In this document: positions 388 to 60,145 of the stretch, piece after piece
Position numbering within the stretch: position 1 is the stretch's first letter
Layout of the letters: the number at the start of each line of letters is the position of its first letter
Origin: Amoebophrya sp. A120
Lineage: Eukaryota; Protista; Dinoflagellata
Assembly (NCBI GenBank): GCA_905178155.1
Contig: CAJINV010000001.1
Coordinates: forward strand, 4,630,747 to 4,694,746
DNA: 64,000 bases
Direction of reading: 5' to 3'
Made by a program: the position numbers and the translations under genes
Notes under the pieces: generated by a model
Database searches by the model: none
Seen by the model: the letters and a program-made list of their open reading frames with translations, nothing else
Told to the model about the DNA's origin: nothing

Positions 388-3300
388 ATGAGTCTGGACG
401 CCGAAGCGGGGCGAGACTTGATGCAGATGCATGCTTTTTTGCACACCAAGGTGAACCGGACTCCCTCCGCAGCGGGTGGCGCAGCGCAAACAAGCGCGCC
501 GAATCCCGACCCGCGGGAGTTCGTTCCCCGCGCGAAACCGGACTTACGGGACTCCCACCCCAGCGGGTACTGGAGAGCCTTGCGAGCGCTTTTTTCGGCG
601 GAGACGACACTCATCCAAAATGAATGGCAGAACAAGTGGACGGAGGTGCATACGCAGCAACCGGATGAACAAGCAGCCCGAGCGGCGTATCGGCGACACT
701 TCGCAGCGGAAGTGGGGGACACCGCTCACGAAACAGACCTTTTCGACGAGCATCGATCGCAGGCCACGCTGGACAAACGGACGGAGCAGGACTGGACACC
801 GCAGCAGAAAACGAGGCAGGCCCAGGCCATCTTCCTCCTTTCGCACGTGGCGGACCACATCGACACAGTTTACGAGCATCGCGCAGGTGCGGCAAGAGCA
901 GATGTGTCCATAACATACCCAGGAGGGGAGTCAAACGTTAGCGACTTGTCGGACAGTCGCGACTTCGAAGTGGAGGCCACATGCGGGAGAAGCTCCGATG
1001 CAAACAATTCCAAGGTCTTTCACGAGAACAACAATTATTGTGTGAGGATGAAAGTGTATCACTCAGAAAAAAAGAAACCTGTAGCACAGCATGCGACGGC
1101 GTAGACTTTTCGAGATAGTACGTGAATAACGTCTGTCTCGCTTTGTTGCATGTCGGTGACATAAGTGGGGTGGCGGCGGCCCGTAACAGAATTTTGTATC
1201 GATTGCGTCATCACAGAGCCTTTATCAATCATGGCAAACAAGGTATTTTTTCTGTGTCATAAAAGTGTATTTCAGAAATGGGACAAAGACCAGCGTGACG
1301 TCGAGAAGAAGGGGCAGACGTTCGTACAAAAGGGAAAGATTCCGAGACAGCGTTTCGACGGTATCCAGACTACCTACTTCGGAGGCAGTTCCCAAAGAAC
1401 CTGGTACCTACTGGGTCCGGGTGACTATGTCGTGGGCTTAGACCCCAGAAGCAACGGACAATCGGAATACGAAGCGGAGTATCAAAATGAAAAATCCCCC
1501 CTCCCCCATATCAAAAGGGAAATCTATGATGGGATTTGTGTACACAAATCGGATCTGTCTTGCAGTAGAGCACTGCGCGCAGACCCTAAGGCTGGGCCGG
1601 GGTCTTCTGGTGTAGGCCCTTAGCATGGCAGATGTCTGCCCTGTAGGCCTTACAGCATTACAAATCGCCTGTAGAGCGCGGCGGACTCTCTGGATTTGCA
1701 TGGTTGCAAGACAGACAGGATTTGGCCACGAATCTGTGTCGGAAATCTCGAGACGGATGCGTTCGCAATGTGGGGAGGGGGGATTTTTTCCCGCAATACG
1801 GAGCACAACATGGCTCCCCAGTCTGCGTGGCGCGAGTCGTCGACGCCTTCCCACGCCGCCCATGACGATCCGGCCGGAGGGGAAAACAACACGCGCCATC
1901 AACTAGAGCGTGTGGGACAGTGGTACGATCGTCGCGCTGCGAGCGCACACGACCGGTGGCTATACGACGACGGACAGCGACGAAAGAGAGCCTTGGAGGA
2001 GGACATGAAAGAGAAGCTGAGCGCTCGCATCCGTCAATCTATCGCAAGGAAAACTTCCCGTGTGCCCGTGCTGTTCCTACCCCGTTCTTGCGTGCTGACC
2101 CACCTGGCGTAAATGCCCCTTGAAGGAGCTGGTCGGTCAGAATTGAAATTCGCAATGCGCGAAGTCGTTCGACTATATGCATGGCCGCTCCGCTGCTGTT
2201 GCATGAAGCACACCTTTTTGCAGACGCCCAAGCTAGTCTATCCAGTCACATCTTTCTTGAGGGTTGCGTGTGCGTTTTGACTGGTTTTAGGAGCGGCGCA
2301 GATTTGCAGCTTTGCATGAAGGGCTTCAGTCACGCATGAAAATGGACGGCCCGGGCTCGCCTTTGCTTTTCCGCGTGACAAAGGCAGAACGTACTCTCAT
2401 TCGGCACGCCACGCCGGCTCGTCTGGACGGCTTCGTGACGTCCGCGTACAGTGAAAGTGAGCGGACGCGTTTTGCTACCCGGAAGCTGTGGGCGGGGAAA
2501 CTGAAAACTTCGGCGAAGCTGACGCTGCGACAGCGGTGGCTCTGGTACGGCGGTGCCAAGTTTCATGAGTCCATGACGGGGGCCGTGATGCCGCACGACA
2601 GCTTTTTCGGGACGAGCACACCGTGGATGGATTGGCAAGGCAACTGGAATGGAAGATGGCTCGACTACCAGTTCCATGCTGTGGTGCGCGAAACCGGCGC
2701 CGAGGACGATGCAAGCTTCCGGCAGGGGAGCGGCCAAACCGATCCGTGGAACCTCGAAAATTTTCCTATCCTCTGCAAAGAAATATTGCGCAGACGCGCT
2801 TCATTGATCATCTGCTCCGTCCAGTGGTTCGTTGTGAAGTATGTATGTGAAAATCATGTCGTACGTACGTACTGGCGACCCTTGTTCAGGGAAAATCTTC
2901 CGAACCGCCTCAGGGGTCGTGCACTTTCGAAACAGTTAAAACAGACACCCACTGTACTTGCTTGTACGGTACTTACAACATAATTACCGTGTCCCCCTGA
3001 TGGAGAGGGCCAGCGCGATAGATCTTTGCAGTTGATATCTTTTGCGCTACTTCACCTGTACGCCTGGGACGCAGGAGCCCGGATCTACAAGGCGACGCCG
3101 AAACCAAACCGTGAGGCGGTGTGGTCTGAAGCCCCAGCTGAAGCCAAGAATACGTCCGGCGAGTACAGCTACCGCTACAGACCCGTAGATAATGCTGGAG
3201 GTTTTGATTCGCAAGAGCTGGATGCGGAAGGTCAGAATCACCGTGCGGCCTACGGCGCTGCGCTACAACAGCACATAACGGGGGTGCCCTGGGCCCTTGA

Positions 3301-6300
3301 AAACGGTTATTTCGCCCGCGGCTCCCGAAGAAGGCAACAACACACGACCAGAGATGTCAACAACCAGCTCGAGAGTACGAGTAGGGAGGAGTACGAGGAC
3401 GAATGGCAAATTCCGCGACGGCCGGTGCCGGGTACCGGACCTCGGTACCCGGCGCCATTTCGACCTCAGGTGGTTATTACAGGGAAAAATGCACCCACCC
3501 CAAAAGTTGCAATACTTGAGAGTGCGAAGTTTCCAAATGAAAACTTTGTGTCATGCATGAAAGGACTATGAATCTTTCTGATGCAGAGTCTGGTCGTATA
3601 CAGCATCGCCTGCATGACAATCGCCGCGCTTGCTGGGGTATTCTGCAATAACAAATTTTTGCTATTCACGACTGCAAATCTGATATATGCAAGAGGGCGA
3701 GTGTTTCCATTGAAAATGAAAAGGTTTGTAATTACAAATGCTCCCAAGTTCTGTCTGGGGTGAGGGCATTTTTCCTGACAATAGTGGTGGTGCAGAGTTT
3801 AGGGGAGGGCACAGTTTCCACCTCTCCCGTCTTCCGCCACTTCCTGCTGAACTCGTACGTGGGCTCCACGACGATCTCGGCTGCCACGCCCGCGGACGGC
3901 GCGGCGGCTACGGAACTCGAGTTGCGCAAAAGACTGCACGAGCTGCTGGTGCGCGGGCTTTACTACACGTCGCACCGAGCCACCATAGCCGTGTCCTCGG
4001 TTTCGGGACGGCGCAGCGCAGGTGCCGTACTCCTTCCTGGGGGTGGTGCCGGGGCGGATGTGGAGCAGAAGCTGCTGGCGGACGGGTATCGACGAGTGAG
4101 CACCACGGGGGTTAATCCCCCCAGCGAGTGGGAGCGCAGCGCAACGGAAATGCGGCAGCAGCGGTGGTGGACCCTGCGGAGCATCCTGGCCGCGCCGCTG
4201 GTGGTCGAGAAAGACCAGCAGAGCGAGTACCGACTGCAGGTGCGGCACGAGCTCCAGCTGTCGCTGCTGCTGCACGGGTTCGAGCGGACCCCGCAGTTTC
4301 TGCAGGAGCAGGGGCCTCTGCTACTGTTCTACATGGTGGCGCTCTCCGACCCTTGGGGCTTCCTCGATCAGGCGGGGCTGGACCGGGAGCGGTTCGCGCG
4401 GTTCTTCCGCACGCAGGTGCTCGACCACTTGAAGGCCAGCAAGCCGCTCGCAACGTTGATGGAGGCCGTGACGCAAGGCGCCTCGCACCGGGCCGCGAGA
4501 CTGGAGTCTGCGCGCGCCGCGGGCCACGGAGACGTGCTACGCCTCCGGGTGTTCTACCGGCTGTTGTTCAAGCTGTGCCAGTTCCTACGGGCGTTCTTCC
4601 CCGATCTGGAGGCGCCGGACGCAGCAGCCCCCTCGCTATCAAATGCAACTAGGTCGGAGTCTGGATCATCAGTGCACATGCTTGTGGTCGTGCTGTTTTT
4701 CCGTGACTCAGAAGGCATGCAGGCTCTAGCATCACTTACAGGTAGTTTTGAGACGGCATGACAAGTGCGCTGCTGCACTTCCGCTCAGCATGGGCATGAA
4801 GAAATACAACTTTTGTGGAGTAGTAAATTCAAGGACGGAACATATCAACATCCGGCAGCACGTTGCGATGTTTTCGCAGCTCTGCCCCTAGAAAATCTCC
4901 TGCGTCCGAAGCTCCTTGCGGCAACGGAGCAAAGTTCTTTATTCGATTTGGTGCAGTCCGGTCGTATGCATGAAAAAAATCCCCTGTCTCGGTAGCAAGA
5001 CATGGGTACAACTATTAACTTTTGCTGTCCTCTATGTGGGAGAGATTTATTTCTTGGTGTAGGTTGAAATATGCGCATGATCCAGACCTAGACGTGTTTA
5101 CAGTGGATACAACCCCCCGGCGGGCGGTGACGACGTGCAGGGGCTGCGGGTGCTGCTGGAAGGGTATCTGCTGGAGCTGCACCAGCTCGTGGTGGGTGAC
5201 CTGGCCGCGGCCGATCGCGCGCGACGGGCTCCTGCTGCCGACCGTGCAGAGGCGGGCGAAGCGGACGGGGAGCAGGACCGCGCCTGGAACCAACTCAGAG
5301 AGGAGGCGATCTACCACGTGCACCGCGTGAGTCAGGATGCGCTGGTTGTGGAGGCCCTTTTCTTCGGATCCGCCCGGGAAGCGTCCTACGTGTATCACGC
5401 CCGGTGCCGCGGGGGCCTTGGTACCGATAGCGAAGACGGCACCATCAACACGTCACCATCACCCCGGACGAACCTGTGTCTGTCTAACGCCATTTTTCTG
5501 AACTGCCTCTCGCGCCGATATTACCTCGAGTCTGAGCACGCGGGACGGCTAGTGATCGATCAGATGGAGATATCCAAGAAAAAAAGATTGTAGGTGTAAC
5601 TTTTTTGGCTGATCAGCATTATGGCAGGACAGCAGAAACCTGTCATGCGCAGATAGCATGTCAAAACGCGCTTGAATGGACCACCCTGCAATGCATATGT
5701 CCAGCATGACAGACGCAATCATCTTACGTGTTGCGCATCACGACAAACTTACACTAACAATGTTTTTTTCCTGCATAGGAGAAGCACGATCTCGCCCGGG
5801 CGCGGTTGTGGATTCGCCAGGCCGACTACGCCGAGCAGCGGGCTGTGGCTGGCAACCCCCGGAGCTTCGCGAGTGCAAGTACCAGGCATGGAGTCGCGTG
5901 GTGTGTCGTGGATGTGTTCTGGCCACCGGATGCCGGTCGTGAGGAGACGCCTGAGACTCGCCTGGGAGCTTGGGGCACGTGGGGACAGGAAGATTTGTTC
6001 GTGAAAGTTACGGATGGAGGCGTAGAAAAGGCGATCAACCCCATGACGGGGGCCGCGATGCTGGTGGAGGGGCAAGCGCAGTTCGAAAACTTCCCAAAGA
6101 TCCCGCGCGGCTGGGCCCGAAGCCCCTTGTTTCAGCGCCTGTTCTCTCAGCCGTCAGACTTTGTGCAGTGCCTGGTACGGGAGGTGAGCGTTTACGGGCA
6201 GCGGTACTTCCAGATTCGCAATTCTCGGGTACGAGACTTACTCTTTCGCCCGGAGTCCACAGCAGGCGGGGACGGACTGCCCGAGAATTCCAGTCCGCGG

Positions 6301-9300
6301 GTGTACTGGCGAAGGCCGGGCACCTCTGAGCTGTTCGAGTTGTCCCGTGCGGAAGAAGTGGAGGACCTAGCGCGGGAGGTCGAGCGGAGCGCACCCCAGC
6401 TGGGCAAAACGCGGACGGTGTGGACGATATCAAATGCAAAAATGTCTGGGTCTGGAAGATTGCTAGATTTGTGATGCAGGTCTTCCATGACCCACGCGGT
6501 CTTGCATGCACGGCCTAGCGCGACAGGTTCTGTGAGATCTCTATTATGCCTTTGTTCCTGCGTGAGAGACTGTCTCTAAAAAACTTGTTTAAAAGTGGAC
6601 CTCTTTTGGTAATCATGCAACACTTTAGAGCTTGACCCAATCTCCCCGAGATCAAGCCCGTAGGCTTTGTTCGTAAAGGGGGTGACTTTGGTTTTAGAGC
6701 AATCTTCCACTCGTGATAGACAAAGGCTAGTGCATTAAAGGTTGAGGGGTCGAATGAATCACGCAACAGAAATTTTTCCACGATCCAGATGTAGCATGAC
6801 AAGCTACACTCTTCCTGACCCAGACATTTCTTCAATGTATAGACGACACTGCGGGACAAGTTTGACTTTTGGGTGAAGCAGAACCCGGACGAACGGGGGA
6901 CAGCCGCCGCGTTAGCGCCGGCGGTCTTACTGGCTGTGAAGCGGGAGAGAGCACGGGGGGAACCAGAGCCGCTCATCCCCTATCCTGAGTAAAAACGTCC
7001 CCACACCAGAGATGTAATGCAGATTTGCAAAGACAGGAAGACTCGTAATACGCATCCCCATGAGAGCCATTTCCAATCGTGTTTTGGAATTTGTGATGCT
7101 CTGAACAGGATGAGCAGATGAATCTGTGATGCGGCTGCACTTGCTAACCTGCACTACACTGCAGAGTGCAACTTGTCATGCGTGACTCACAAAACTCCTA
7201 GGTTTGTGTTGCAAAATCCCCATCCTGACTCTGGTGTGGCTACGTTTTTACTCAGGATATCCCCTCGGGCGTAGTCAGTCACCCGCAGGCGATGTTCACA
7301 CTCACGGAGGCGGGGTACCTGACGCCCCACCGCAGTGACTCCACGGGCTTGCCGAAAGACTACGCAAACCTGTTTGGCACAGTGCAGGCGTATCAACATG
7401 CAGCTCAAGAACGCGGCGTGGGCGGCGAGGGCCGGACGATCTCGTGGCGCCTGCTGGCGCAGGGAAATATCGTTGGCGGGGATTTGGACCAACAAGCCTT
7501 AGTGCGGCAGTTGCTTCGCAGCGGTGGCAGGGATGTGACCGGCCTAGACCTGAACCCACAGTATGTCCGCGACATGGTCGGACGGGTGCGAGAGGGCAAG
7601 GGAATCACGCAGATGGGCATTTCTATGAAGTGCAAGTATGTTGTCTGGGTCCTCCGGAAGACCGCAGGACGAGTTTCCCATGCTATTGTTCCATGACCCG
7701 ATGAAAGGTCTAGCATGCAAGCCCTGATATTTTACAGGGTTGCAGAAGTAGGTGTCTCAAACTCAATGACTAAGCCGCATGTTGACAAGGTTCGTCTACT
7801 TCCGGCGTGTCAGTAAAGTGGGCATCAACTTTTGCTGTCCATGCATGACAGATTTTTGTGCGGTTTCATGTGCGCACGACGAGTTTGCACGCTTCCAGAC
7901 CCAGATCGATATTTGCAATGCATAATTTCGGTGGAGGCGCAACTGAGTTGGGAGGCGCATGAAGTACCAGTACGCGAGGACGGGTCCGCCGAGAGGCTGA
8001 TCGCGAACGCAGTGCAATTTCCGTTGCTGGCTGCGGGGCGCGGGGACTCCGCCACCTGGTTGACGTTTGTGCGGCCGGGGGAACTCAGCCCGTGGCACCG
8101 CTATTGGCACGCAGCCGAGGACCCGACGTACGTCCTCGCGCGAAGGGCCGTCGTTCCCGGATGGCCGAGCTTGCGCCACGCGATTGCCTTGCGCGAACGC
8201 CCCGCACGGCCGGAGGATGATGTTGACGATTATTACAACCACGTAGTACAAGGAGCAGGAGCAGCTGCACAAGCGCATCGCAACATGGACGAGGTCCAGC
8301 GGACGGAGAACACGTGGACGCAGCTGCGTTCGTTGCGGCTTCTGGTCCTGCGCACCGCACTGCCGCTGCAGCAAGCCCGGAATATCGACCTGATTCGGGA
8401 CTACGCCGTCACGGTCCCGGAGCTTCGTGGCATCCAGGCTGCAGGAGCGCCACTGCCGCAATACGTTGTGATCGATGCGAAAACGCAGGATCAACAACCT
8501 TACGAGGAATTCATAATCCAAGCAGAAGGCGAGGGCGACACACAACTACAGGAACAAGCTCCGCAGGAGCCAGGTGCTGGCGCGGCAGTTCAAGTCGAAG
8601 AGCCAGGTCAGTGCCCGATATGTCTGGACGACATTGATATGAACAGCCAAGAGTACGTTTACTGCGCGGGAGGTCGAAGACTTAACCACTATTTCCACAA
8701 GGCATGCAGCGGGGATCACGCCAGGGAAAACTCAGAGGCGCGGTGCCCATTGTGCAGAGAAGCAGGGGGGTTTAGGATTGCCAATGCTGGTCCAAACATG
8801 GGCAGCCGGTACCCGCCAGCCAGGAATGCGGCGGCGGGAGCTCCTGCGGCGGCGGGAGCTGCACAGGAGGTGGATTTCTTTTCTGTAGTACCGCGGCGCG
8901 AAGACGCAAGCTGGAGAGGCCCGTCCGAGGAGGTACAGGTTGCCCGACCCGACGTCGAGCGTGCAGAGTTGAATGCGCCTTTCCTCGGCGACGCGGAGGC
9001 GCAGACGCAGGCGGAGCTGTACCTCGCCTACCTGTCGTATGGAAGTGCCATGCGGGGAATCCTCGAATTCGATCTATATTGGAACAATTTGAATGCAGAT
9101 GCACCCCCCGCCATTTCTACAACCAGGCTCATGCGAGTCGTTATGGTGGTGGCCCGAGAATGATGGCCGTGGCACTTCTCGGTTGCCCGTGTCGTACTCA
9201 TTCTCCGTGCGCGACGCCCTTCATCTACGCCCTATGGCCAGTAGGAAGGCAAAGGACGCCGCGTGTTTGTAGTTTAGTGTGAGTCCTCTCTGTCTCCACC

Positions 9301-12300
9301 ATTCTCGGCCAGTGGTCCCCGTAGCCACACCATTTCCGGCTTCGTCTCATGTTTTTCGCGCGCGAGGCCGGGTGAGGCTAGTCCTAGTACAACTTTTTGT
9401 ATTGTTTGCGAGTGAAAACTGAAAGGTATATTCTCATTAAATCTTACATTGAGGATTTTCCCACCTGGTGCTTCCATACCTCCCTTGTGCTCCCGGAGGC
9501 TCGTCCCACGCAGGCGATGGAGATGCTGCGACACATGGTGAACCCGTTGACCACCTACTCGGCTGAGTCCAAAGGCATTTTGCGGAACATGGTGCGGTCG
9601 AAGGCCGCGGCCGCGGCAACGAAACAAGACCGGTCGCACCCGGACGCGCTGCGGGCCCGCTTGGTGGCGCTGGCGCGGCTGCTGCGCAACGAGCTCCGCC
9701 ACAGCGCCAACGGAGCAGGGGAGGCGCCTGCGGAAGCTGCCGAAATGGCCAAGGAAATCGCGGGCGAGATTGAGCAGCTGGTTCGCGGCGGAGTAGCGCT
9801 GCGGTCGCTGCGGCTGAATACTCGCGCTCAGACGAATTTCTTGGGTGAACACGACGAAGCAGCTGTCCTCGATTGGGTTTTAAACCACTGCGGCGAGGCG
9901 GCAACCGCGGATGTAATTTATCGCGATTACAAGAACTCTAAATTTTCAACCCCGCGTGGCTTGGAAAGTCGTGCGCTTGGTGATCAATTTTTGCGCACGT
10001 CAGATTCAGACCAAACTCTGCATGCGGGCTGCTCGTGTAAATACTTCCCTGTTCTTCGCAGCCGCATGCCGTGGGAACACTGTATATGAGTACTTATGTA
10101 TTTATTTGTTGATATATCAGGTCCTGTTCTTGCCGGCTCGCCTGTTGACAAGGGTCGTCCAAGATGCTTGCGCGAAATTTTTTTCATGTTCATTGATGAT
10201 AGGCATTCCGGGGAGGTTTTCGTTATTTAGGCAGAGAGGTCTGGCGCAGACGACCACGCGCAGGAACGTTGGCACAGTAGCAAAACAGCCACTATAAATG
10301 AAATCACAGTTGTTGTATTACTAGGTCGAGTTGCATTTGTTCCATAGCGTGCCCCAGGCCGCGGGGGGGTATATTGATTTTTTCATCGTGATAGTCCACG
10401 CAAAGCGATCGAAGCCTTCGCGAAAGCCGAGGCAAGTACCGCAGTACAGCCAAACCTGCTCGTCAAGCTCGGAACGCTGGAGCGAATGGATGACACAGTG
10501 CCGGCTGCGTGGCGCATTGCAAACTACGCGAACAGTGGTGGGGCCGCAACAGCCGGGTTTCTGTTGATGCCCCCGGGGCAACGAGATAACTTGTCGCAAC
10601 ACAGGAGCGGGGAGCAAGAACTACAGGAGTTCATGTCTCAGTACGTTTACAGCGAGCAAGGGCTTTCCGACCGCGACAAGAGAAACCGGCGCGAAGCCTT
10701 GGCCGGCGGAGTTTTGCAGCGGCGGAATCTGAGAGATCATTGTGCAGAGATCAATCGGCTCCATAATTCGGGGACTCGTCACCGGCCTGGTGATAAGGCT
10801 CTCCTTCGCCTGCGTGGCTTTTACGGCTGGGTCAAGGGCGTAGATAGTGCTGAAGCAACAGAGGTCCGAGTCCGCCTGGAAAGAAAGCTTGTCTGGATGC
10901 TTGGTTCGGAATCTCTGGATTTGCAGCAGTGGCGGCCACCACGACCCGACCATGAAACCGAATTTGCGAGAGAACGTCGGAGGCACTTACTGCTGACGTG
11001 TTCTTCCACTTATTTTCTGATGCGAGCATTGCTGTGGACGCGTGCCAGAAGAGTCCCCCTTCCCGACCCGCCTCAGTTTCCGTGGGAAAGAAATCAAAAC
11101 GCACCTGGCCAAGGCAACAGAGCGAGGCAAGCGCACCAGGCGGAGGCAAGCGCACCTGGCGACGGCAATTGGGTAGACATTGATTCGCTAAACCTTCGGA
11201 CGGAGCTCGACACAAACGTTTTCTTGGACAGTGGAAACGGTTCTCGGCATTACCACGTCGTGAACACCCAAAACAGGTCGGAGAGGCTGGTGGTCAGACG
11301 AGCGACGGCCGGGGTAACGGCGACGGAGGACGATCCTCAGTACCGTAGTTTGCGGGAGGAGCAGCACAGGAAGGAGCGGGAGCTTGCACACACAGAAGCC
11401 AGTCTTCCGGGTGCGCGTGCACAGTTACGAGCGAGCGTGCAAGCGACGCAAAACTTGCGGGACCAAATAAATGATCGGTGGACATTTCGTACGCTTCCCC
11501 AAGGGGAGCGAGACAGAGTATGGGGTCTTTATTTTGACGCACAGAACCGAGAGACCCGGCCGCGCGATCAGGTACAAACTCTCGAGGGACAGCAAAGAGA
11601 TCTCACGAGGCAGATCGAAGGACTGAAAACGAATCGCAAGAACCACTGGATGCGAGTTCGCTCGCAGTGGATTAAAATGGAGTGGAAAGCTCGTGCGTTG
11701 GAGCCCTGGCTCATGCAAGTGCAGAATGACGTGATTGCCCCTTTTCAGCAACACTTGGACGATATTCGTTTCACCGGAGCAGCAGCAGACGTCGCGACGA
11801 CGTCGAATTTAGACCAGTTCCCTCCGCGACGCGCTGATCGATTAGCGTCGGTTTTCGGCGGACCGACACGCGCCCAGGTCCGGGCACTGCGCCCCGGACA
11901 GCGGCCCGCCCGGCTGACTTTGCCCGAACCTGCCAGGTCCCAGACTGCTTTGGAATGGCTGCGCGGCCGCCGAGAACCAGACGCCTCCGTGCGACTCGTA
12001 GCGGACGACGAGCCTCTTGGGAAAGCCCGCGCTGTGGTGCGAGAGCTAGGTCGAGGCAAGTTGTTCTTTCGGGACCTTCTCGACGCCGTTTCACCCGAGG
12101 CGAACCAGCAGCAAGCGGGCCCGATTCTCGAGGAGCTGCTACACCGCTACGAAAGAGACCGGGACACGGCCCGCGTTTTGGAGCGCGCAGCGCTGGAGAG
12201 CGTCCTGTTTCTCACCCCGACCGGCACGACCGGCGACGCAGAGGAGGCGGTGCTGACCTACCTGCACCGGTCCCGCAGCGTGTGGCGCATGCATGACCTG

Positions 12301-15300
12301 GTGCGCCTCGTCGCCGAGGACCCCTACTTGGGGATGGATCTGGTCTGGTGGCGGGAGAAGCTCCGCGCCGAGACCGCGGTCACATTCGCGCTCGTAGAGA
12401 AGGTCCGACTCTACTGCGTGGCGTACCTCTTGCTGCAGTCGCGCCTCACGCAAACCCGCGCAGTTTTGCGAGAGTTGGCCGCGGCCCAGCAGCCCGACCA
12501 TGTTGCGGGTGTGCAGCCACCACACGAACTGACGGAGACGGCGGCGCGGAACTTGTGGGACCTAGGCCTGTCCCAGTGCATGCGGTACGACCCGGCGGTG
12601 TACCCGATGTACCTCGCGTTTGACGCCACCCAGGGCTTGATGATGTGGCCGGCGCAGGTGGAGACCCTGAAAAAGCTCGTGCAGCGCGAAGTACACCTCC
12701 TGGAAACGGGTCAAATCGTGAAGACCTCGGGCTTCTCGCCGCGGCTCCTCCGGCAGCCCTTGTTCAGCAGTCCGCTGGTGGCCCTACCAAATGAAATCAG
12801 CAGTGCAGCCTCGTCCGGCGTTTTGTGGCGCGTGACCGGGTTCGGCGAGGACAAGCGCTGGGTCGAGGTGACGCACCCAGCAGGTGCTGGTCTTGAGGCC
12901 GGTGGCCCCACCAGCACGACCACCGGATTTGTGTGGTACACGGACTTGCAAGTTCCGGACTCCGTCTTCCTTCCGGGCGAGCGCGTGCGCTTCCGCTCGC
13001 TGCCGGCGGGAGGAGATCAGTCCGTCGTGCGGAACGGCAGTTTCGCGCGGGTGCGGTACGTCGCGAACAGCAGCGAGGGCGTGCAGACCGCGGACGCGTT
13101 CCTGGTGCTGGAGCTGGAGGAGCAGCCCGGAGCCGCGCAGCAGCCTCCGTACACCCCGGTCACGGTGAAGCTGGACTACCCAACCGCGTACGCGGCGTTG
13201 GAGCGCGTGGAAGATGAAGCGGAGTCCTCGTCCTCGCCGGGCAGCACGCAGCTCACCTCGTTCACCAGCGTGTCCGAGCAGCTGCGCATGGGCGCCGGGA
13301 AAACCAAAGTGTTGTCGGGCCTATGCATTGCAAAAGTATCGTACTAGTATAAATTGCATTACAAATTTTATCAGAAAGAAAAATGGAATTTGTAATGCTA
13401 ATTCAGGTAAAAAGGTCGGTTTGTCATGCATGACTGCAATTCATACGAGTACGATACTTTTGCACAGGATAGGGCCGGACCCTCGCGACCGTGGGCAGCA
13501 CGCACCGCATCCCGGTCTTGGTGTTCACCGACGCCCTGCACGCGTCCAACACGCAGGACATCCGCAGCACCGTACGCACGCAGGGCAAGGACGTCGAGGT
13601 TTTGTCCTTCGCGGTGCACGCGAACGGCACAGTGGGCTACCTGTCCTGGCTAAAGAACAAGCTCCTGGAAGCGAAGCGCACGGGCCAAGTGATTTTCACA
13701 GCGAAGGCGAAGGATCTGCAGGGCCTGGTGGCGGCCGTTAACCTGAAGTTCGAGAAGCTGCGCACGTTGATGCGCCAGGTGCACGACTCGCAGATGTGGA
13801 TCGAGCGCGAACGCCGCGCCCAACCGGATGCAGTCGGTGCGGAGGAGGACGACGACGAGATGGAACAGCGGCTCTACGCGCAGTGGCTCGGCAGCATGCG
13901 TCGCAATGTGCAAGCCAATGATGTCCTGGAGGGTATGAATCAGGAGTATCGCAACTGCGTCGTCAAGGTTCTGGGCATGGACGAGGGACGCCTCGCGCGA
14001 AAGGAGCGCCCGGAGCCGGAGTGCGCCAACGGCGAGTCGGCCCTGGCGCCCCTGCAAGAAAGGGCGTACCAGGCCGGGGAGACCATGCGGGTGCTGTTGC
14101 TGCTGTTCGAGGTGCTCGACATTCTGTCCAGCGACGGCCACACGCTGTTCGACGAAGTGGATTCCTTGCTGGCCTGGAACAAGCAGCTGAATCTTCCGGC
14201 GGGCGACCGCATGCCGGTTCCGGCCACCTCTATCAATGAGGTCATGAAGATCTGGTGGGAGTTGCTGATGTGCGACAGCCACGAACTCGCGGAGGAAGTA
14301 GTAGGCTCGGGAAGCGCTGGCCCCGCTGCAGTCCAACCACCTGCGGCCGCGAGTCCTTCACCTCTTCGTGGCCCAGATGGCGCACCGGCCGCGCCGGCTA
14401 CTGCTGCGCAAGCAACGACTGCTGCCGCCGGCCTGGCCCGGACGAGGACCACTCCTGCGCCGCGGTACAAACGGGTTCTGGATTTGGTCGTGCGGAACGC
14501 GCACAGCAAGATGCCGCAGTCCTTCTACGACGAGTCGATTCTGCCGAAACTGGCCGACGATGTTTGCCGCCGGCTGGTCAAGGAGACGCTGGGAAAACCA
14601 CAGAAGCGGCCGGGGGACGACGTGGCCAAGGTTCGGTTCGGGGAGGGCCAGTTGCAGCGGCAGCAGGACAACTGCAAGGGCTTTCTGCTGTCCACTTCGC
14701 TGCACCACTTTTCCAGGGACAACAAGGGAATGGCGCTGGACGCATGGAGCTTCATCAACACACTCCCGCGAACCGTCCCGCTGTACGACCAGGTCCGCGA
14801 GAGCGGATCCGCGGCCAAGCACGTGCTCGGGAACATCGCGCGCGAGTCGCTGTCCAAGCAAACCAACGTGCACTACGGGCGCAGCCAGATTGTGCACGAC
14901 TTCGAGGGGGCCATGCCCTACAAGGCCGCGGAGACCCCGAGCGAGTCTTCCAAAACGGAGATGTCGCTCTACAAGGACGTGTACGAAGCCATGAGCAAGA
15001 CCATACTGACCTACCTGTCCGAACCGTGGGACGCGGAGATGGCGACGAAGGACGTGTTCGTACTGCCCGGGTTTGCGACCTCCACCGAGAGCATCAGCCA
15101 GCGACTGGCGCAACAAGCCCAGCAGGCCGGACCGCTCGCGCAAAAGAGTCGCCGCGTCCCGCAGAAGATCAGCGAGCTGCACTACCAGACGCGCCGCCTG
15201 ATCAAGCTGATCCGCCGCGAGTGCCGCGAGAATTTCGGCCGGAGTGACACGGACCACGCGCTCAAGCCGCCGGACAACTTCTTCCTTGGTGTCGAAAAAT

Positions 15301-37057: not shown

Positions 37058-37215
37058 TAACTTGATGGCGAGTCGTGAATTCCGTAGAAAGGTCAAAATG
37101 TTCTGGTGATCGAGGTTCCTTGTCCTGAAGTCTGCGAGGACTTGCGGACCAGGACATCAACCCTACCAGGATGGCGCCCGGCACTGTACCATTCCCGCGG
37201 TCGCCGTTTTCGACG

Positions 37216-46100: not shown

Positions 46101-47747
46101 CTCGCGTTTTATCATCCCCAGGTTTCCGAGCCGCTCCCCGAGGACCTGCAGAAGTTGTCGAAGTCCCAAATTTGCGTGTCTATTTGGGGAATGTACGGCA
46201 AGGAGTCCATCATCGAGCAGACCCGGGCGAACCCCACGCGCCCGACGCTGTTCAACATGGCGTTGATTCCGCGGATTTCCCGGGCGCAGGCGCTCGACGT
46301 GCTCACGTCCATGGCCAACATCGCCGGCTATCGTGCGGTGCTGGACGCGTTCCGGTTCTTCCCGAAGTTCGCGAAGCCCTCCACGACCGCGAGCGGGAAC
46401 ACCCCGCCGGCGAAGGTGTTCATCGTGGGTGCCGGCGTCGCGGGGTTGTCCGCTATCGCCACCGCGCACGGCTTGGGCGCCAAGGTGTTCGCTTCCGACG
46501 TCCGATCCGCTGCGAAGGAGCAGGTGGAGTCCATGGGCGCGGAGTTCGTCGAGGTGCAGGGCATGATCCAGGGCGAGGGTGCTGGCGGCTACGCGCGCGA
46601 TATGGGGGAGGAGTTTAAGGAACGGCAGAAACAGCTGTACGCCAAGATGTGCAAGGAGTGCGACATTGTGGTCACGACCGCCTTGATCCCCGGCCGCGCG
46701 GCGCCAGTGGTGGTGACAGAGGAAATGGTGCTGTCGATGAAACGGGGAAGTGTCATCGTCGACCTGGCTGCGTTGAACGGTACTTACTATTATGTGACTG
46801 GACGATGACGTTCCATTTTTTCATTAATTCTCCTAACCGGATAGAAGCATCTGGCTCTCGTTTTCACAAATAGTTGTGTGTGACAAGCTGTCAAGCATGT
46901 GCTTCTGTTTCAGCAGAAATCTCAAGAGCGTAAAAATCTCTTGTAATCTTTTCGTTCCCCAACCCCAGGTGGTAACTGCGAGCTGACCCAGAAGGACGAA
47001 GAGGTTGTTTCTGAGAATGGTGTGACCATCATCGGCAAGACCAACTACCCTTCGGAGATGGCGCCGCAGGCCAGCGACTTTCTGGCGCGCAACTTCTACG
47101 CTTTCTTGGATGTGTTGTGCAACAGCGACCCGACCCACCAATTGAAGAGGTTGAATATGGAGGACCAGGTCATCCGTGACTCCGTCGTCGTCTACGAGGG
47201 CGCTTTGATGTACCCGCCGCCGAAGCAGCCCGAGCCGGTCCAGCCGAAGGCGGCCGCGGCGGTGATGAACAATGCGAGCGAGTTGGCCAACGCGGAGATG
47301 AACAATGCGGCCGAGACCCTCCCGCCGGGCATGCTGATGACGGTGTTGGACTGGATCGGCGAGCACAGTGAGGAGCTGGCCATGTTCCTCGGCACTGGCT
47401 TCCTCCTCGCGGTCGGGTTGGGGACCAACATCCCGCCGGAGGAAATCACGCACCTGGGGTACTTCGTGCTCAGTCTGATGATCGGGAACTTCACCGTCGC
47501 CTCCGTTACCCCGGCGTTGCACACGCCCCTGATCTCCGTCACGAACGCGATTTCCGGCATCATCGTCATCGGCGGGATGCTGCAGCTCGGCGGCCCGCTG
47601 CTGTCCGCAAAGGTGGCTTCGGCGATGCTGGCGATCTTTTTCTCCTCCGTCAACATCGTCGGCGGGTTCGCGGTTACCGCAAGGATGCTCAACATGTTCC
47701 GGTCCGAAACTTCGAATCCACCAAGCCGACAGGCCAGTCGGCAGTGA
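43118..47747 (+). CDS. NNT: NAD(P) transhydrogenase, single-chain beta-alpha order
   Basis: EEMPQLVAGFHSFVGLAA, TFTGSVVAAGKL, GGADMPVVVSLLNS, IVPGYGLAVARAQ, HPVAGRLPGHMNVLLAEA, then EKRVSVTP, GAGVAGLSAI, TPALHTPLISVTNAISG. GT-AG introns (e.g. 43451-43621) plus TIR element 44313-44576. Inclusion of the first exon is inferred from an in-frame splice. Confidence 0.95.
44313..44576. mobile_element. TIR intron element, family A (264 bp)
   Basis: 34-bp perfect TIR TATCAAATGTAAAAATGTCTGGGTCTGGAAGAAT; DR CAAGC/CAAGT; spliced AAGK/LHG in a conserved motif. Confidence 0.95.
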
Positions 47748-48929: not shown

Positions 48930-51036
48930 ATGGTTCGACTCCAGCCCGGGAACAAGCCCGGCGCTGCGGCGTCGGGCGGTGGGGCGCGCGAGAAGGAGCA
49001 GAAAAACAGCGACCTCACCGGGAATACTATGCGAATACAGACGGCGCGCGGCAAGGTTTATCTTTTCGGAGTCCGCCTGTTTCAGAACGACTGGACCGGC
49101 ACGGTGATAACCGGGTTGATTCTCGGTATATTCGTGGCCAAGTGCTGCGGCTACTTCGGATGGTCCGCGCCGGGGTCGGACGAGGCGTATTACACCTTGG
49201 CGTGTCTGTTTCTTATCTACGGCATGCTGCTGGCTGCGGATCTGCAAAAGAGCATCGGCGTGGACGTGGTACTCCTCGCTTGCCTTTCGGTCGCGTTTCT
49301 GATAAAACACTCGGATTCCATCCTGCACCCGAGTAGTAACTTTGAGGTCAACTGGGTCCGTCCGGTGGCGTTCACGGTGTTTGGAATACCAATACAGAGC
49401 TTCGGGATCTGCATGGCCGCGGCGTTTCTGGTGTGCCACGAACTCGCAGAACGGGAGTTCTCAGTGAATAAGGTATAGAATTATATTTTTCCGGATGTGC
49501 GACACCGGATGAAATTTTGATTGTTCCTTGTTCCCTACGTCATCATTGATTTCACAAACATATCACCCATTTCAGATAGAATGTGCCGCGGGTCCGCTTT
49601 TGGTTGCAGCGACGGTCGGGGGCCTTTTCGGTGCAAAGGTGCACTACGTAATCTTGAATGCCCACATAGACGACGCCGCGTTTTTTGCCCCAGGCTTGGT
49701 GTGGCAAGGCGGAGCACTCATGGGGGCTGCCTGCGTTATTGCGTACGTGAAGGTACTAGCGAATTTTGTCAACTGCGGGTTCTTCATCTGCTTGACGCAT
49801 AATCTATCAATTGTGCATGACTAGTATTACATCAAAAAAAACCGGCACAAAGTCTCGTCCACAGAACCATGAAAATTCTCATCGACAGTCCTTCTCCACT
49901 GAGATCGTTCACCGCGTATTAGACGTGTCCGCGCCCTTGCTCCCGCTCGGGCACGCGATCGGAAAAATCGGCTGCTTTGTCTCGGGCGACGGTTGCTACG
50001 GCCCCCACAGCAGCTACTACTTCGCGATGAGCTTCCCGCACGGTCGGCTGCCGACGAAAAGGCCGGTGCACCCGACTCCCATCTACGAAATGATCCTTTC
50101 CGGGCTGGTTTTCCACTACCTGTGGACGCGACGGCACGTCGCGCTGTGGTTCAAGGGGGACTATCAAATGTAAAAGTGTCTGGGTCTGGAAGACTCATGC
50201 TGTTTTTGCATGACACAGAAGGTCTGGCATGGAAGCTCTAGCATCACACGTCTCGAGAAGCTTCCGCAATGCCGAATCCGCATGACAAATGCCGCACTCT
50301 GGTGACAGAAAGTGGGCAACTTTTGCTAACTATGCATGAGAGATTTTTATGTGTTGTGAAATGCGCATCACAAGTTTGTCTTCTTCCAGACCCAGACATT
50401 TTTGCAATTCATAGGGACCAAACGACGCTGATGTTCCTCCTGACCAGCGTCACGAGGTTTATCACGGAAATTATTACAATGAAAAATGCCCCCACCCCAG
50501 AACTTGGCAGCATTTGTATTGCGAACCTTTCCAATGGAAACACTCCCCGTCTTGCACATATCAGCATCACAAATCCTCCATGCTGAATAGCTCAGATTTG
50601 TGTTGCAAAGGAGCACAACAGCAGCCGCATCTGTTATGCAAAAGATACCTTGCGCACCTAAATTCTGCATCAGCAATGAATGCTCGTAGTCCTTTCATGC
50701 AAGACGAAAATCTTTCATTTGGAAACTTTGCATGAGAAACTTTTGCCGGGGGCATTTTTCATTGTAATAGAAATTTGGCGAGACCACAACCACGACGGCC
50801 AGGCCGAGCCGCTGTGGCCCTGGAATCAGCAGCAGATGATCTGCGCCTGGGTCTTCGTCTTGTCCTGCGTCACCCGACTACTCATCCGATGGCAGGCATT
50901 TGTAGAAACGAGCAAGGCCAACGCGCCATTAGTGCCTGGAGAGAACAAAGGGGAAGAAGGGGGAAAGAACGCAAATGAGAGCAACGCCAGACAAACCGTA
51001 AACACGGGTGGCACCACATCGAAAAAGAAAAGATAA
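48930..51036 (+). CDS. lgt: Prolipoprotein diacylglyceryl transferase (Lgt)-like protein
   Basis: PVAFTVFGIPIQSFG, GGLFGAKVHYVI, GLVWQGGALMG, LDVSAPLLPLGHAIGKIGCFVSGDGCYG, VHPTPIYE, RFITEIWRD. Two probable GT-AG introns and two TIR elements. Confidence 0.85.
50162..50413. mobile_element. TIR intron element, family A (252 bp)
   Basis: TATCAAATGTAAAAGTGTCTGGGTCTGGAAGA...TCTTCCAGACCCAGACATTTTTGCAATTCATA; DR GGGAC; spliced FKGD/QTTLMF. Confidence 0.93.
50472..50769. mobile_element. TIR intron element, family C, reverse orientation (298 bp)
   Basis: TATTACAATGAAAAATGCCCC...GGGGCATTTTTCATTGTAATA; DR GAAAT; spliced RFITE/IWRD. Confidence 0.93.
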
Positions 51037-55560: not shown

Positions 55561-58500
55561 ATGTATTCCTCCTTCTCATACCCAGGGTCGAAGAGCGCGT
55601 CCAAGGGCGGGAGTAGTACTTACGGGAAGACCGGCAAAGGCGGGGCGGCGGCAAGTAGCTACCAGCAGGCTTACCACCTCGCCAGCGCGCAGCAGCAGCA
55701 CAGCGGGTCCACGGCCTGGGCCGCCGGTGGGTATAATTATCACCAGCCGGCGCACATCAGCGGTTCCTACCTCGGTGCTGCTGGGCCAACGTCTTCGTAC
55801 ATTCCGGATAGTGGGTCGAGTGGGACGAGCGTGGGCTCGTGGCAGGCGCAGAGCCACGCAGAACTGCTGGCGGAGCTGCAAATTCAGCAGTACAATCACG
55901 CGGCGGCCGAGCAATACGGAGTAGAGCAACAGGCTGGTGAGCACTCGTTGTACAGCGCGTCGCCGGAACTCCTGCAACACCAGGCGGAACAGGCAGTGGC
56001 CGCGGCCGGTGCGGTGGGGTACCCAGATTACTCCTCCTACCTGTACAACTCAACAGGAGCTGCTGCAGCGGAACAGCAACAGCACGCCGCGTACTACCAG
56101 CAACTTTCGTCCACGGTGTCGGTCCCGCCGGGCTTCGAACCGGAAGATTCGCAACCGATTTGGGCGGATCACGGGGGAGTAGAGCTGGGAGTAACAGACA
56201 CCAGCACTTCTGCGCGGACTAGCGAAAATATTAAAGGGGAGACCACTTCTGCAGCACTACAAGGTTCTGCTGCAAGCAGGATTTCGCTTATTTCCGTTGG
56301 GACTTCTTCTGCGGGATCGTCCTCCTCCTCGTCAGCAAGCGCGAGCGGGAGCGCAGCCACTTCCTCCGGCAGCTTCAGCAAAGTTACGGACCCTTCGCAA
56401 ATCAAGGAGTTCCATCCCACGTTGAGCCACAGCCCTGCGGGGGATTTGGTGCCGAGCTTAACGGCGGCGTTAGAAGCGTCGCCGGCGGGACCTTGTTCCG
56501 ACTACAAGTATATGGAAGAGGAGTACAGTGCGGGATATCTTCCACCTCCCGAATCATCTTCAACCTCCGCTGAGTCCGTCGCTTCCGCGGCTGCGGCAGC
56601 GTACCACCTGAAGCAGGCAGCGCTGTACGGTAGCTTTCTGCGTGCTGCATCTTCCCAGCACCAGGCCGCGCAACTTGCGGCTGCGGAGCACCTCGACCCG
56701 GCTACGTTTTACGCCACCGGCTTTGCTCCACCGCCGAGCGGGTCCTTGGTCCCATCGCCGGGGCTTTTCGCGGGTGGAGCTGCAGCAGCGAACGCTGCCG
56801 CACTAGCGGCCGGGCTGAAAAACAGCGGCAAGACCACGAGCGCATCCAAAGCCTCTTCTTCGGGAAAGCACCACAAAGGCGGAAAGCAGGGCGGATTCGG
56901 AGGAGGTGCAGCAGCTTTTTCTTCGCACGGCGGCAAGAACGGACACAACATGAAGGGTCCGGCGGGCGGGGCGCATAATGCCTCGAGCAAGCACGACCAA
57001 CATCTTGGGAAGCAGGGGGCCTACGGAAAGACCTCCTTCTCCCCTTCCGCGTCCTCTTCGAACAGCAGCTCGGCCTCGCCGGCGCCAAATAAACCCCAGC
57101 CGCCCAGCAGCACGGCCGTCGCGAATGCGAACTTTGTGCCCCCGATCGGCCAGGGTGGCGTGTTGGCCACGGGTAACACCGGGTCCACGAAGGGAGCGGG
57201 CGGCAAGCACGGGAAAAAGTGGCCCCGCTACCTTCCGGAGTACCCCACGGAGGACTTTTGGAAGTACAGCAGCTTCGGCGACGTGTCAGTATGATAGTGC
57301 ACAACTCCCCCTCCCCCTCATTTGTAATGCAAAATTCCCAACTCACGCTCACGCTCATCCTGTGCCTCCTGGCACGTTTTGCATGACAAGTTCTGGAAGC
57401 CCAAATAGCACTACACTCCTCCGCAAAGTTGTCATGCAAAACCTGCATTCTTGCTGGCACTTGTATTGCCGTTCATGCTATACAAATGAGGGGGAGGGGA
57501 TGTTGTGCACTGTCATAGTCAGAGAGGATTCACTACTTAGGAATCGCCTACAGCTACCTGAACTACTTCAGTGCGCGCACGGAAGAGATCATGGACCGCC
57601 AACGTCAGCGCTCGCGTTTGCTCAAGATGATTCAGTATACGCCACCAACGTCAACAGTCGATGCGCGGGCTCCTTCGTCCACTGGAACTTCTGCAAGCGT
57701 CAAGAGCGACGGCAATGCCAGTTGTGGGGCCAACAAAATAAATTCAATTCCACCGGCGGAGCTCGAGGAGGGCTCCCTCTTTGGCGCTTCCGTGGACGCG
57801 GACGCCATGAAAAAGCGTTTTGACGACCTGACGAACCGCGAGAGGGGCGCTGTGGCTGCGAATTGGTGCGTGATTCGGACCATGCTCGAACTGCAGGAAG
57901 ACCTGGACAGTGCCAGGTTCATCACCTCCGGAGTACCAAACTCGTTCAAGGTCGACCAAGACAACGACGGCCGGGTACTACTTCTATCGGAACTTTGGAG
58001 TTTCATTTTTGCAAATTTGCGCAGGATTTTGATTGCATAAGTTTGCGCGGATTTTTCGTCTGCTCAATATGTTTAGCCGATATCTTTTGAGGATGTGCGG
58101 AAGCGATTCTACATGTACGAAATTTTTGGGACGAAAATAATGAACGCAATACAGACTGGAGCGACCCTGAAGCAGTTGGTCAGGGACTGGTCAGAAGAAG
58201 GCAAAGAAGATACCTAATTGAAAACATTCGACCAAGACAGTGAAATGTGCGCCTAGCAGCTTTACTGCGGAAGTAAAGTTCAATAGGCTGCGGCCAGTTG
58301 CATTTCGTTGTGCTTTGTAAGTATACCGTATGTTTTTGTATCACCATCTTTTTTTATCTATGACTCTCTCGCAGCGGTACAACGTGTTTTGTATTGAGGT
58401 TGAGTGTTTTCATGGTGATTTCTGAGCGCGACCTGGCCTACAAACCGTTGCTTGACGCACTGGAGAAATATTTACCGCTTACCGAAGAGATGAAGAGCGG

Positions 58501-60145
58501 GGTGGCGGATCCACGCGACCACTACCGCGTCAGCGTTCCTGGATGCGGGCTCGCCAGGCTTTTGTTTGAGGTAGCAAATAATTTTCTGTTCTCATCATGT
58601 TGAATGTCATGCAGCATGCAGTATCATGTCGCACATTTTTGAGAATTATACCACTCAGCCGCTCTCTGCTGATCATTATCAAGAATCACAATGAATCGCT
58701 GCAGGTTGTGAACCGAGGGTATTGTGGTGAGGGAAACGAGTTTTCTTGGCACATGATGATGATGGGCGACTTCATCCTAAATTGCTGCGACGAACCGAAT
58801 ATGTACACCATATACCCATGGGCGACGTCATACAAGGAAAAGATCACGGACGAGTAAATAAATATAACATAGAGTAGTTTTTTTTCGATTAAGGTCGCAC
58901 GCAGTGTACTCACGGAGCTCCCTCCTATCCGTGTATAATTATCTGGTCGTCATGTATTGTAGGTATAGTAGCGCCATAGATCATAGAAGTGGAAGTGCAT
59001 GTAGCAGTGTCTAAAGGGCCTCTTTAAATCCATTGCCATACGTTCTTTTACCAGGGGTCGGCTGAAAGGCATCCGGATTCCGGATGTGTCAGTGCTCCGG
59101 GAACTGACCAACCCGAAGCGCACCCTACCCGTGGTCGGCTTCGGGATGGCGTCCGGGGACTTCACTGAGATTTACGGGCGCGAGTCGCAGGTGGGACAGT
59201 GGGACGCGGTCCTGACCTGCTACTTCGTGGACACCGCGCGCAACATCTTTCTCTACATTCGCACCATCGCGAAGATGCTGCGGTCCGGCGGCGTGTGGGC
59301 GAACCTGGGGCCGCTGTTGTGGCACTTCGCGGAGACGCCGTATCAAATGTAAAAGTGTCTGGCTCTGGAAGAATGCAACTTGTCATGCTGATTTTGGATT
59401 CTAAAAAAATCTGTATTGCATGAGCAGCAAAGAGAGTCCAAGTTTTGCTACACGGAAAGAGCATTTGTCATGCGGTATAGGCATCAGGAAGCCCTCACAA
59501 AATCTGTGACGCTAGGGCATGCATCACAGACATCAGGAGTCATGCGAAATGTGCATGACAAACCTGGCAATCTTCCAGACCCAGACATTTTTGCATTTGA
59601 TATGCCGGAGCAGCACTCGATCGAGGTGTCGTACCACGAACTTATGCTCGCGGTCCGCATATCTTAATGAAAAATCCCCCCTCGCCATACTAAAACGGAG
59701 ATTTGTGTAGCGTGATTTGTGACCACAAATCATGTTGTCATGCTAGAAGGCAAAAGATGCGGACTGTAGTGCTGGCTGGCGTGGGAAAGCCTTTCATCTT
59801 CAGCATGCCAGGAGGCAACTGGAAGTGGGAAACAGCATGACAAACTTCCTGCAGTCCAGGCCAAGACTGCGCTTCTTGGCCTTCTAGCAATACAAGGCTA
59901 TAATTTGTGTACGCCAATCCAGCATCACAGATGTCTCTTTCGATATGGGGAGGGGTGATTTTTCCTCGCAATGCCGCAAGTACTTCGTGATTCGGGAGGA
60001 TCGCGACGTCCCCGTGGGACCGGGCTACAACTTCGACGACAACAGCACGCGCAACAACCGGTTTCGCCCAAAGCTCTTCGTGGGCATACGCAACAAGAAA
60101 CCGGTCAAGGGGGAGAGCAACCCGGTGTACAACGAGGAAATGTAG
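55561..60145 (+). CDS. CARNMT1: Carnosine N-methyltransferase (N2227-like) with long low-complexity N-terminus
   Basis: LKQLVRDWSEEG, VPGCGLARLLFE, GNEFSWHMM, GDFTEIYG, WDAVLTCYFVDTARNI, WANLGPLLWHF, SIEVSY. Three TIR elements plus other introns whose exact ends (~57975-59054) I did not all resolve. Confidence 0.88.
57290..57517. mobile_element. TIR intron element, singleton (228 bp)
   Basis: TATGATAGTGCACAACTCCCCCTCCCCCTCATTTGTA...TACAAATGAGGGGGAGGGGATGTTGTGCACTGTCATA; DR GTCAG; spliced GDVS/ERIHYLG. Confidence 0.93.
59341..59602. mobile_element. TIR intron element, family A, reverse orientation (262 bp)
   Basis: TATCAAATGTAAAAGTGTCTGG...CCAGACATTTTTGCATTTGATA; DR CGCCG/TGCCG; interior resembles the reverse complement of the 44313 copy. 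Confidence 0.93.
59660..59973. mobile_element. TIR intron element, family B, reverse orientation (314 bp), ends ATG
   Basis: TATCTTAATGAAAAATCCCCC...GGGGTGATTTTTCCTCGCAATG; DR CCGCA; spliced LAVR/KYFVIRE. Confidence 0.9.

Follow-up and report, generated by a model that had tools for sequence, protein, structure and literature searches.

Transposon-derived introns of Amoebophrya sp. A120: removal from RNA with five extra nucleotides, and a likely fixed position of the cut

How does a cell remove, without a scar, an intron that carries none of the usual end signals? The question is raised by a 64,000-nucleotide stretch of the dinoflagellate Amoebophrya sp. A120 (contig CAJINV010000001.1, positions 4,630,747 to 4,694,746, forward strand; hereafter the window), in which ten genes are interrupted by short elements bounded by terminal inverted repeats (TIRs) and mostly flanked by direct repeats (DRs) of 5 bases. 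Such introner elements are already published, and finding them is not news; the removal of tens of thousands of introns devoid of GT-AG ends is described as mechanistically open in the portions of the literature covered here (Farhat 2021, PMC7789003; PMC11282704), and it is to those portions that all our citations refer. On balance we favor, by a little over an even chance, the reading that the elements are transposon-derived introns spliced out together with five further nucleotides, likely by a cut that takes one base on the upstream side of the element and four on its downstream side (-1/+4), and likely by the host's own spliceosome, which works without U1.

The elements and their removal from RNA

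The window was scanned for TAT..ATA pairs with TIRs, against ten shuffled sequences, and a second time for TIRs with no preset end letters, against three shuffles; weaker elements were added by probing with known ends. The first scan returned 27 pairs, 16 of them with a DR matching at no fewer than four of five bases, compared with none or one in each shuffle, and the second returned 39 pairs, 15 of them with a perfect DR, all ending TA(T/C)..ATA (none in the three shuffles). In total, the window holds 26 elements of 119-475 nt in ten genes, all on the + strand. An earlier reading of the letters without database searches (the sequence-only reading) had listed 24 elements in nine genes; all 24 were recovered, and the two additional ones are 9919-10393, found through a joint in RNA, and the degenerate 58211-58420 (single numbers below denote elements by their first position). 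The twenty matching or one-mismatch repeats of that list also held, with 18 at 5/5 and two at 4/5 (44313 and 59341), the other four standing at 2/5 (1057, 2040, 2767 and 4637); over all 26 elements, the DR is 4-5/5 in 20. The TIRs match at 10-20 of 20 positions in 25 elements and at 13 or more in 24 of these, and position tables built from 165 oriented elements and the window give the inverted repeat as TAT, seven looser bases and at least three As. Most ends are TAT...ATA, as had been stated, but 40704 and 58211 start with TAC, 59660 ends with ATG, 2040 with ACA and 58211 with ATT. Short, non-coding, TIR-bounded and flanked by a duplication of fixed 5-bp length, these elements have the anatomy of miniature inverted-repeat transposable elements (MITEs).

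Every one of the 26, if retained, introduces an in-frame stop. Deletion of the element length plus 5 nt (L+5), the rule put forward in the sequence-only reading, leaves a single open reading frame in all ten genes, whereas deletion of L+3 or L+4 brings an early stop or the loss of the terminal stop in all ten. Gene 1 requires ten such removals for its 1868 stop-free codons, and the PNTB profile in the NAD(P) transhydrogenase gene (NNT) reaches position 142 before element 44313 and restarts at 142 after it. Pfam identifies NOL10, an ion channel, a carbonic anhydrase, NNT and carnosine N-methyltransferase (CARNMT1), and no Pfam match was found in the gene 2 exons scanned. An exon of CARNMT1 is 100% identical to P0001 and one of gene 1 to P0025 (recovered by a full HMMER scan), both of them Amoebophrya sp. 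A120 proteins. The host genes to which the argument returns are as follows.

388..9163, + strand: host gene 1, at least 1868 aa, C-terminal RING, 10 introners
9517..23075 (end approximate), + strand: host gene 2, 4139 aa, 3 introners and the canonical intron 17400-17634
43130..47747, + strand: NNT gene, 1248 aa
55561..60145, + strand: CARNMT1 gene, 1011 aa, 4 introners and 3 GT-AG introns

RNA contigs of runs X3-X6 (one sample, with the RNA type presumed) were aligned to positions 301-17800, which hold 12 elements. Joints were found at six of them and all six skip exactly L+5 (212, 419, 284, 306, 480 and 155 nt), which is the gap that had been predicted; the other six have no joint and little or no cover and are uninformative on splicing. 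The joints have depths of 2.7-5.1, two of them have a short side under 31 nt, only that at 9919 occurs in two runs, and five were flagged "between: not known", though no inserted letters were listed. The same RNA run skips the GT-AG intron 17400-17634. Contigs of X4 part from the DNA sequence precisely at the DR in 40704, 44313 and 57290, and in NNT they pass over three GT-AG introns. In the raw RNA runs X9 and X10 the exons are uncovered (128 and 4 reads aligned, mostly at one element end). About 115 raw X9 reads at 44527-44576 run from the element end into another flank, possibly from an element retained in a transcript. The elements are thus removed from RNA as L+5.

It is very improbable, in our estimation, that the joints are template-switching artifacts of reverse transcriptase across the hairpins, that the elements are excised at the DNA level like internal eliminated sequences, or that the genes are dead. 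A hairpin next to a short direct repeat is indeed a signature of such template switching, the RNA type of X3-X6 is presumed only, and the DNA examined came from a single run. However, the elements would truncate the proteins at 26 of 26 sites, NNT and NOL10 included; the reading frame is kept across the skipped element 9919, which has no DR; GT-AG introns are absent from contigs of the same runs; and an orthologous protein is colinear at three of three sites after L+5 removal. As for the DNA, at 12 of 14 junctions contigs of run X1 continue without a break from flanking sequence into the element, for 25-66 nt (the other two were not shown). An empty-site form, if common, would have broken these contigs at the junctions, and no excised form was seen in this one run, which was read as contigs that drop rare variants and is possibly the window's own source. 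The depth of X1 is 42-55 in most element-free bins as compared with 3e4-2e5 (summed) in bins with elements, from which we take the elements to be highly repeated in the genome, and repeat families are shared among elements within the window.

Where the cut falls

A perfect DR masks the position of the cut, so that only decayed repeats are informative. We denote by r the number of DR bases that the mRNA takes from the upstream copy. At 9919-10393, with a DR of 0/5, contigs of X4 and X5 join 9917 to 10398 unambiguously, which gives r=4, that is, a cut one base before TAT and four bases after ATA. In NNT, the fifth DR position of element 44313 has, in RNA, the base of the downstream copy (r<=4); P0025 is compatible with r=4-5 at 1057 and likewise at 2040; and P0001 places r at 3-5 for 58211 and at 1 or more for 59341. 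One TIR pattern pulled 131 loci (L001-L131) from another assembly, hereafter the sibling genome, in which the gene at locus L052 is 85% identical to an A120 protein; at L052:1937, the Asp of the A120 orthologue is recovered only at r=3-4. Seven of the eight informative junctions therefore fit r=4, and no other value of r fits all seven, which makes a cut one base upstream and four bases downstream of the terminal hairpin likely. Since 9919 is still cut at L+5 with a DR of 0/5, the DR is not needed for precision; the duplication thus makes removal scarless and does not guide the cut. With a fixed -1/+4 register, a 5-bp duplication would yield scarless removal and what had been "no signature" would become N-TA(T/C).

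Several observations weigh against a fixed register. Only 9919 is pinned exactly, by two contigs with depths of 4.5 and 2.7 from one sample that carry the "between: not known" flag (with no inserted letters listed), and the annotated proteins may derive from the same RNA as X3-X6. At the eighth junction, L052:1298, the Lys of the orthologue needs r<=3 unless Lys has changed to Arg. A codon-likelihood test on 21 mismatched sibling elements gave 0, 5.4, 6.2, 5.9, 6.5 and 10.2 for r=0 to 5, so that r=0 is disfavored, r=4 is not singled out and r=5 is highest. Finally, the legend of Figure 3 in Farhat 2021 (PMC7789003) describes the splice sites as variable relative to the hairpin. These last three points, together with the legend of Figure S23 in the same paper, are what would be expected if the elements do leave the RNA but the position of the cut is not fixed within the duplication, being guided by the repeat or by slippage, and the -1/+4 register is a small-sample effect. 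We consider this unlikely, given that the repeat-less 9919 is cut at exactly L+5 and that r=4 is common to seven of the eight informative junctions. The direction of mutation per DR position was uninformative on the register. Among 122 oriented sibling elements with a perfect DR (flanks unannotated), the best frame class is L+5 in 92, L+3 in 17 and L+4 in 13, and we read the latter 30 as probable noise.

The evidence for each element of the window is listed below; basis refers to what supports its removal.

1057..1261, + strand: introner, DR 2/5; reads GT-AG at -1/+4; P0025 fits r=4-5
1480..1798, + strand: introner, DR 5/5; junction present in P0025
2040..2380, + strand: degenerate introner ending ACA, DR 2/5; P0025 fits r=4-5
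2767..3037, + strand: introner, DR 2/5; basis, frame only
3475..3783, + strand: introner, DR 5/5; an RNA contig piece stops at 3474 with 14 extra letters
4637..5109, + strand: introner, possibly compound, DR 2/5; basis, frame only
5571..5777, + strand: introner, DR 5/5; RNA joint skips 212 (L+5)
6428..6841, + strand: introner, DR 5/5; RNA joint skips 419 (L+5), short side 24 nt
6981..7259, + strand: introner, DR 5/5; RNA joint skips 284 (L+5)
7624..7924, + strand: introner, DR 5/5; RNA joint skips 306 (L+5), short side 25 nt
9919..10393, + strand: introner (intron 9918-10397), DR 0/5; RNA joint of 9917 to 10398 skips 480 (L+5); a terminal stem forms in the fold
13322..13471, + strand: introner, DR 5/5; one contig bridges it, shorter side 222 nt, and skips 155 (L+5)
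22767..23033, + strand: introner near the 3' end of gene 2, DR 5/5; scans and frame
26397..26719, + strand: introner in NOL10, DR 5/5; scan, Pfam and frame
31666..31928, + strand: introner in the ion-channel gene, DR 5/5; scan, Pfam and frame
34696..35017, + strand: introner in gene 33763-35748 (no name), DR 5/5; scan and frame
37518..37636, + strand: introner in carbonic anhydrase, DR 5/5; scan, Pfam and frame
38330..38635, + strand: second carbonic anhydrase introner, DR 5/5; scan and frame
40704..40955, + strand: introner starting TAC, DR 5/5; an RNA contig piece starts at 40956
44313..44576, + strand: introner in NNT, DR 4/5; RNA has the downstream base at DR position 5 (r<=4)
50162..50413, + strand: introner in an Lgt-like gene (weak Pfam match), DR 5/5
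50472..50769, + strand: second introner of the Lgt-like gene, DR 5/5
57290..57517, + strand: introner in CARNMT1, DR 5/5; P0001; an RNA contig piece ends at 57284 and runs on for 236 nt
58211..58420, + strand: degenerate introner TAC..ATT, TIR 12/20, DR 2/5; 215 nt (L+5) removed in the P0001 exon map
59341..59602, + strand: introner in CARNMT1, DR 4/5, orientation opposite to its family member 44313; P0001 has Thr, not Met (r>=1)
59660..59973, + strand: introner ending ATG, DR 5/5

Likeness to host donors and the removing machinery

A cut at -1/+4 gives an intron of the form N-TA(T/C)...ATA-NNNN, with the terminal TAT at +2 to +4. The canonical donors of the window, chosen by reading and frame (seven of the introns are backed by RNA or P0001), are GTA in 24 of 24 cases (GTAC in 8, GTAT in 8, GTAA in 6 and GTAG in 2). 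The sequence-only reading had the elements removed with no GT-AG signals. This stands in that, at r=4, GT is found in four, AG in five and both in only one of 25 elements, so that they are not canonical U2-type introns; it needs amending in that the TAT supplies +2 to +4 of the local GTA(T/C) donor. The one exception, 1057, is the sole element of the 25 that can be read as GT-AG, and it is so read at r=4; it may be an old introner turned canonical. Element 1057 is also flanked by a 9-nt repeat (1051-1059 and 1262-1270) that is offset by one base and corresponds to L+6, while frame and P0025 use L+5. In the sibling genome, GT-AG can be read at any placement in only 8 of 139 elements. Conversely, the TIR in the -1/+4 register is kept in none of 22 canonical introns (maximum 10/20).

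A role for the spliceosome would fit what its active site reads. Within the P complex of yeast, A51 of U6 is paired with U+2, whereas G+1 contacts G-1 and A-2 contacts the branch adenosine (10.1101/212811); the base kept by the elements, U+2, is thus the base read by a small nuclear RNA (snRNA). Consistent with this, all nine predominant non-canonical motifs of A120 in Table S4 of Farhat 2021 (PMC7789003) have T at +2, with no TA-NN or NN-TA motif among them, and all nine motifs of strain A25, whose repeat begins TTA, start with TT. The terminal TA is lost at one left end as against eight right ends (p=0.039), a count from which the doubtful rows L025:1808 and L077:2148 were dropped and in which window elements had partly been found by their left ends. 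U1 snRNA is reported as undetected in A25 and A120, and as present in the Kv strain, where introns are mostly GT-AG (PMC12005148). The 24 canonical donors of the window have no G+5 consensus, in agreement with the reported absence of U1.

A sequence of events can be proposed on these grounds. A transposase or integrase supplied in trans would insert the element with a 5-bp target duplication, and the TIRs would pair in the pre-mRNA. The terminal TA at +2/+3, placed as in host GTA donors, would be recognized at the active site of U6, while the hairpin would stand in for U1 and for AG by bringing up and measuring the 3' cut, and the checks internal to the intron (G+1 with G-1, A-2 with the branch adenosine) would be relaxed. 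The mRNA would then keep four bases of the upstream DR copy and one of the downstream copy, and the original five would be restored.

Part of the evidence runs counter to a spliceosomal removal. Among 170 oriented elements with a perfect DR from the window and the sibling loci, G+1 occurs in 38 (background 29%, p=0.05), which is if anything a depletion, AG at -2/-1 in 18 (background 7%, p=0.07), and it is A+1 that is enriched (63 of 170, p=0.0016 uncorrected); canonical ends are not favored among surviving insertions. No branch-point motif could be recognized in the elements, and the canonical acceptors lack the sharp T-run that the elements show at the corresponding place. Table S4 is only supportive, because annotation, where a junction is ambiguous, moves it towards GT/AT and AG/AC. 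The left end of sibling element L075 is AAT, and since TA is also the end of the transposon, it may be kept for transposition alone. The excess of A concerns the fifth base of the DR, which would be intron +1 in the proposed register (A in 37% as compared with 26%), and it has no counterpart in T at the mirror position.

The same elements could be cut in the same -1/+4 register by a hairpin-measuring endonuclease and a ligase acting independently of the spliceosome, as is suspected for the nonconventional introns of euglenids, a possibility we regard as real but clearly less probable than the spliceosome. G+1, A-2 and Y-3 are unenriched, and both orientations are tolerated, with 15 family members in the same direction as the gene and 25 in the opposite one. 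The terminal stem is strong in 44313 (fold z -8.6), and at least 12 of 20 TIR pairs form in 19 of 26 minimum-free-energy folds, in which, as in euglenid introns, the ends are joined by a terminal stem. Moreover, euglenid introns with TIRs, target-site duplications (TSDs) and a staggered stem leave as circles (PMC11282704). On the other hand, T+2 and A+3 match the host GTA donor and 1057 is GT-AG in the same register; TA is better preserved at the 5' than at the 3' end; removal persists in old elements whose stems are weak (9919 with z -1.0, and 1057 and 7624, which form 0 of 20 pairs); and no such enzyme has been identified. A broader reading, which we regard as less likely than not, posits a sequence-blind route that measures the hairpin and always cuts at -1/+4, by which any TIR transposon with a 5-bp duplication would become a scarless intron in either orientation and in any target; in its boldest form, this route would be a second, non-spliceosomal machine that arose in parallel with that of euglenids.

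U12-type donors read RTATCCT and are recognized with U11, U12 and U6atac. The left ends of the elements recall this motif in part, with N-TATC in 119 of 165 and the second C in only 45. A U12-like reading was set aside, as the minor snRNAs are reported absent by Farhat 2021 (PMC7789003).

Origin, known systems and meaning

That the elements are non-autonomous TIR DNA transposons with 5-bp target duplications, removed from RNA scarlessly, had been claimed in the sequence-only reading and is supported both by the six L+5 joints and by the sibling genome, where 153 of 243 TIR pairs have a perfect 5-base DR, one a perfect 4-base DR and none a perfect 6-base DR. The orthologue P0023 is colinear with a sibling gene at the three of three sites mentioned above (at the protein level only). 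The sibling genome also shares the same TIR families, and neighboring elements there are often 20-100 nt apart. Five-base duplications are typical of Copia-type integrases. The 26 elements of the window encode nothing, and no transposase was found among them, in line with the earlier claim that none is identified; Farhat 2021 (PMC7789003) gives putative transposases only in A25. That claim is nevertheless qualified by an A120 TIR family with Copia/Gypsy-like open reading frames, for which mobilization of elements such as these was not demonstrated in the text covered (Gozashti 2025, PMC12130899). This family could be a lead, judging from its Copia-like coding capacity and the 5-base duplication.

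The window elements are known Amoebophrya introner elements, as the sequence-only reading had considered probable. In Farhat 2021 (PMC7789003), more than 60% of A120 introns are non-canonical, with RNA support, and 29,850 are repeated; the introner elements have inverted repeats of 8-20 nt and DRs of 3-5 nt that overlap the exon/intron borders, and the A120 repeat is TAT, seven looser bases and an A-run, with a 5-bp DR in the example of Figure S19. This is the anatomy of the window elements, which share the inverted repeats, the DRs, the A120 pattern, the genome-wide repetition and the removal from RNA, and the phenomenon is therefore already published. The difference lies in the ends, for which that paper describes no clear signature and variable sites, whereas we propose a fixed -1/+4 register and an N-TA(T/C) mimic of the donor. 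In the literature text searched (figures, the primary euglenid papers and supplements 13-14 of Gozashti 2025 being outside its scope), neither a fixed register, nor the N-TA(T/C) likeness to donors, nor a stated mechanism of removal was found; the probable fixed register and the donor likeness are what is added here to published work.

Other systems resemble the window elements in part. Gozashti 2025 (PMC12130899) describes 58 introner families in A120, and of the 11 A120 family rows covered, nine are TIR DNA elements and all 11 co-opt at least one host splice site; their automated TSD lengths are 2-5 or none, in contrast to the 5-bp duplication found here, and family 38 has Copia/Gypsy-like open reading frames whereas the window elements have none. 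The nonconventional introns of euglenids share the TIR stem that joins the ends, TSD-like repeats, non-canonical junctions and a MITE origin; however, their stem pairs +4..+6 with -8..-6 whereas that of the window elements starts at +2 with -5, their junctions follow a pyrimidine|purine consensus whereas all four bases occur at the junction positions here, and they are excised as circles in a separate lineage (PMC11282704). In Fritillaria borealis, transposon-derived introns with TIRs and TSDs are removed by an adapted spliceosome, but they prefer AG-AC or AG-AT ends after an exonic TAC (PMC11282704), whereas the first base and the last four are essentially free here. The introners of Aureococcus and Micromonas are likewise non-autonomous elements turned into introns on insertion, but they carry or co-opt canonical motifs (Farhat 2021, PMC7789003; PMC9860276), which differs from the readable GT-AG in 1 of 25 window and 8 of 139 sibling elements.

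Other repeats of the window lie apart from these introns. An intergenic palindromic element of 650 nt at 36408-37058, with 127-nt arms that are 91% complementary, probably belongs to a different MITE family, and a TAT..ATA element with no direct repeat (36629-36841) is nested within it. A moderately repeated stretch at 53849-53960 lies in the GT-AG intron 53614-54004 of a HisRS gene, where DNA contigs break and depth rises. Three near-exact copies of a 34-nt unit lie downstream of the ion-channel gene (32575-32690), and gene 2 (9517-23075) contains a 24-nt repeat region at 19417-19796.

In summary, a fixed register would tell which bases should be mutated and which junction should be sought in a lariat or circle. 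If the spliceosome does remove these elements, then a U1-less spliceosome can dispense with the G+1/G-1 and A-2 checks, with RNA structure serving as its ruler. If removal proves to be non-spliceosomal, it would represent a second route for the splicing of nuclear pre-mRNA.

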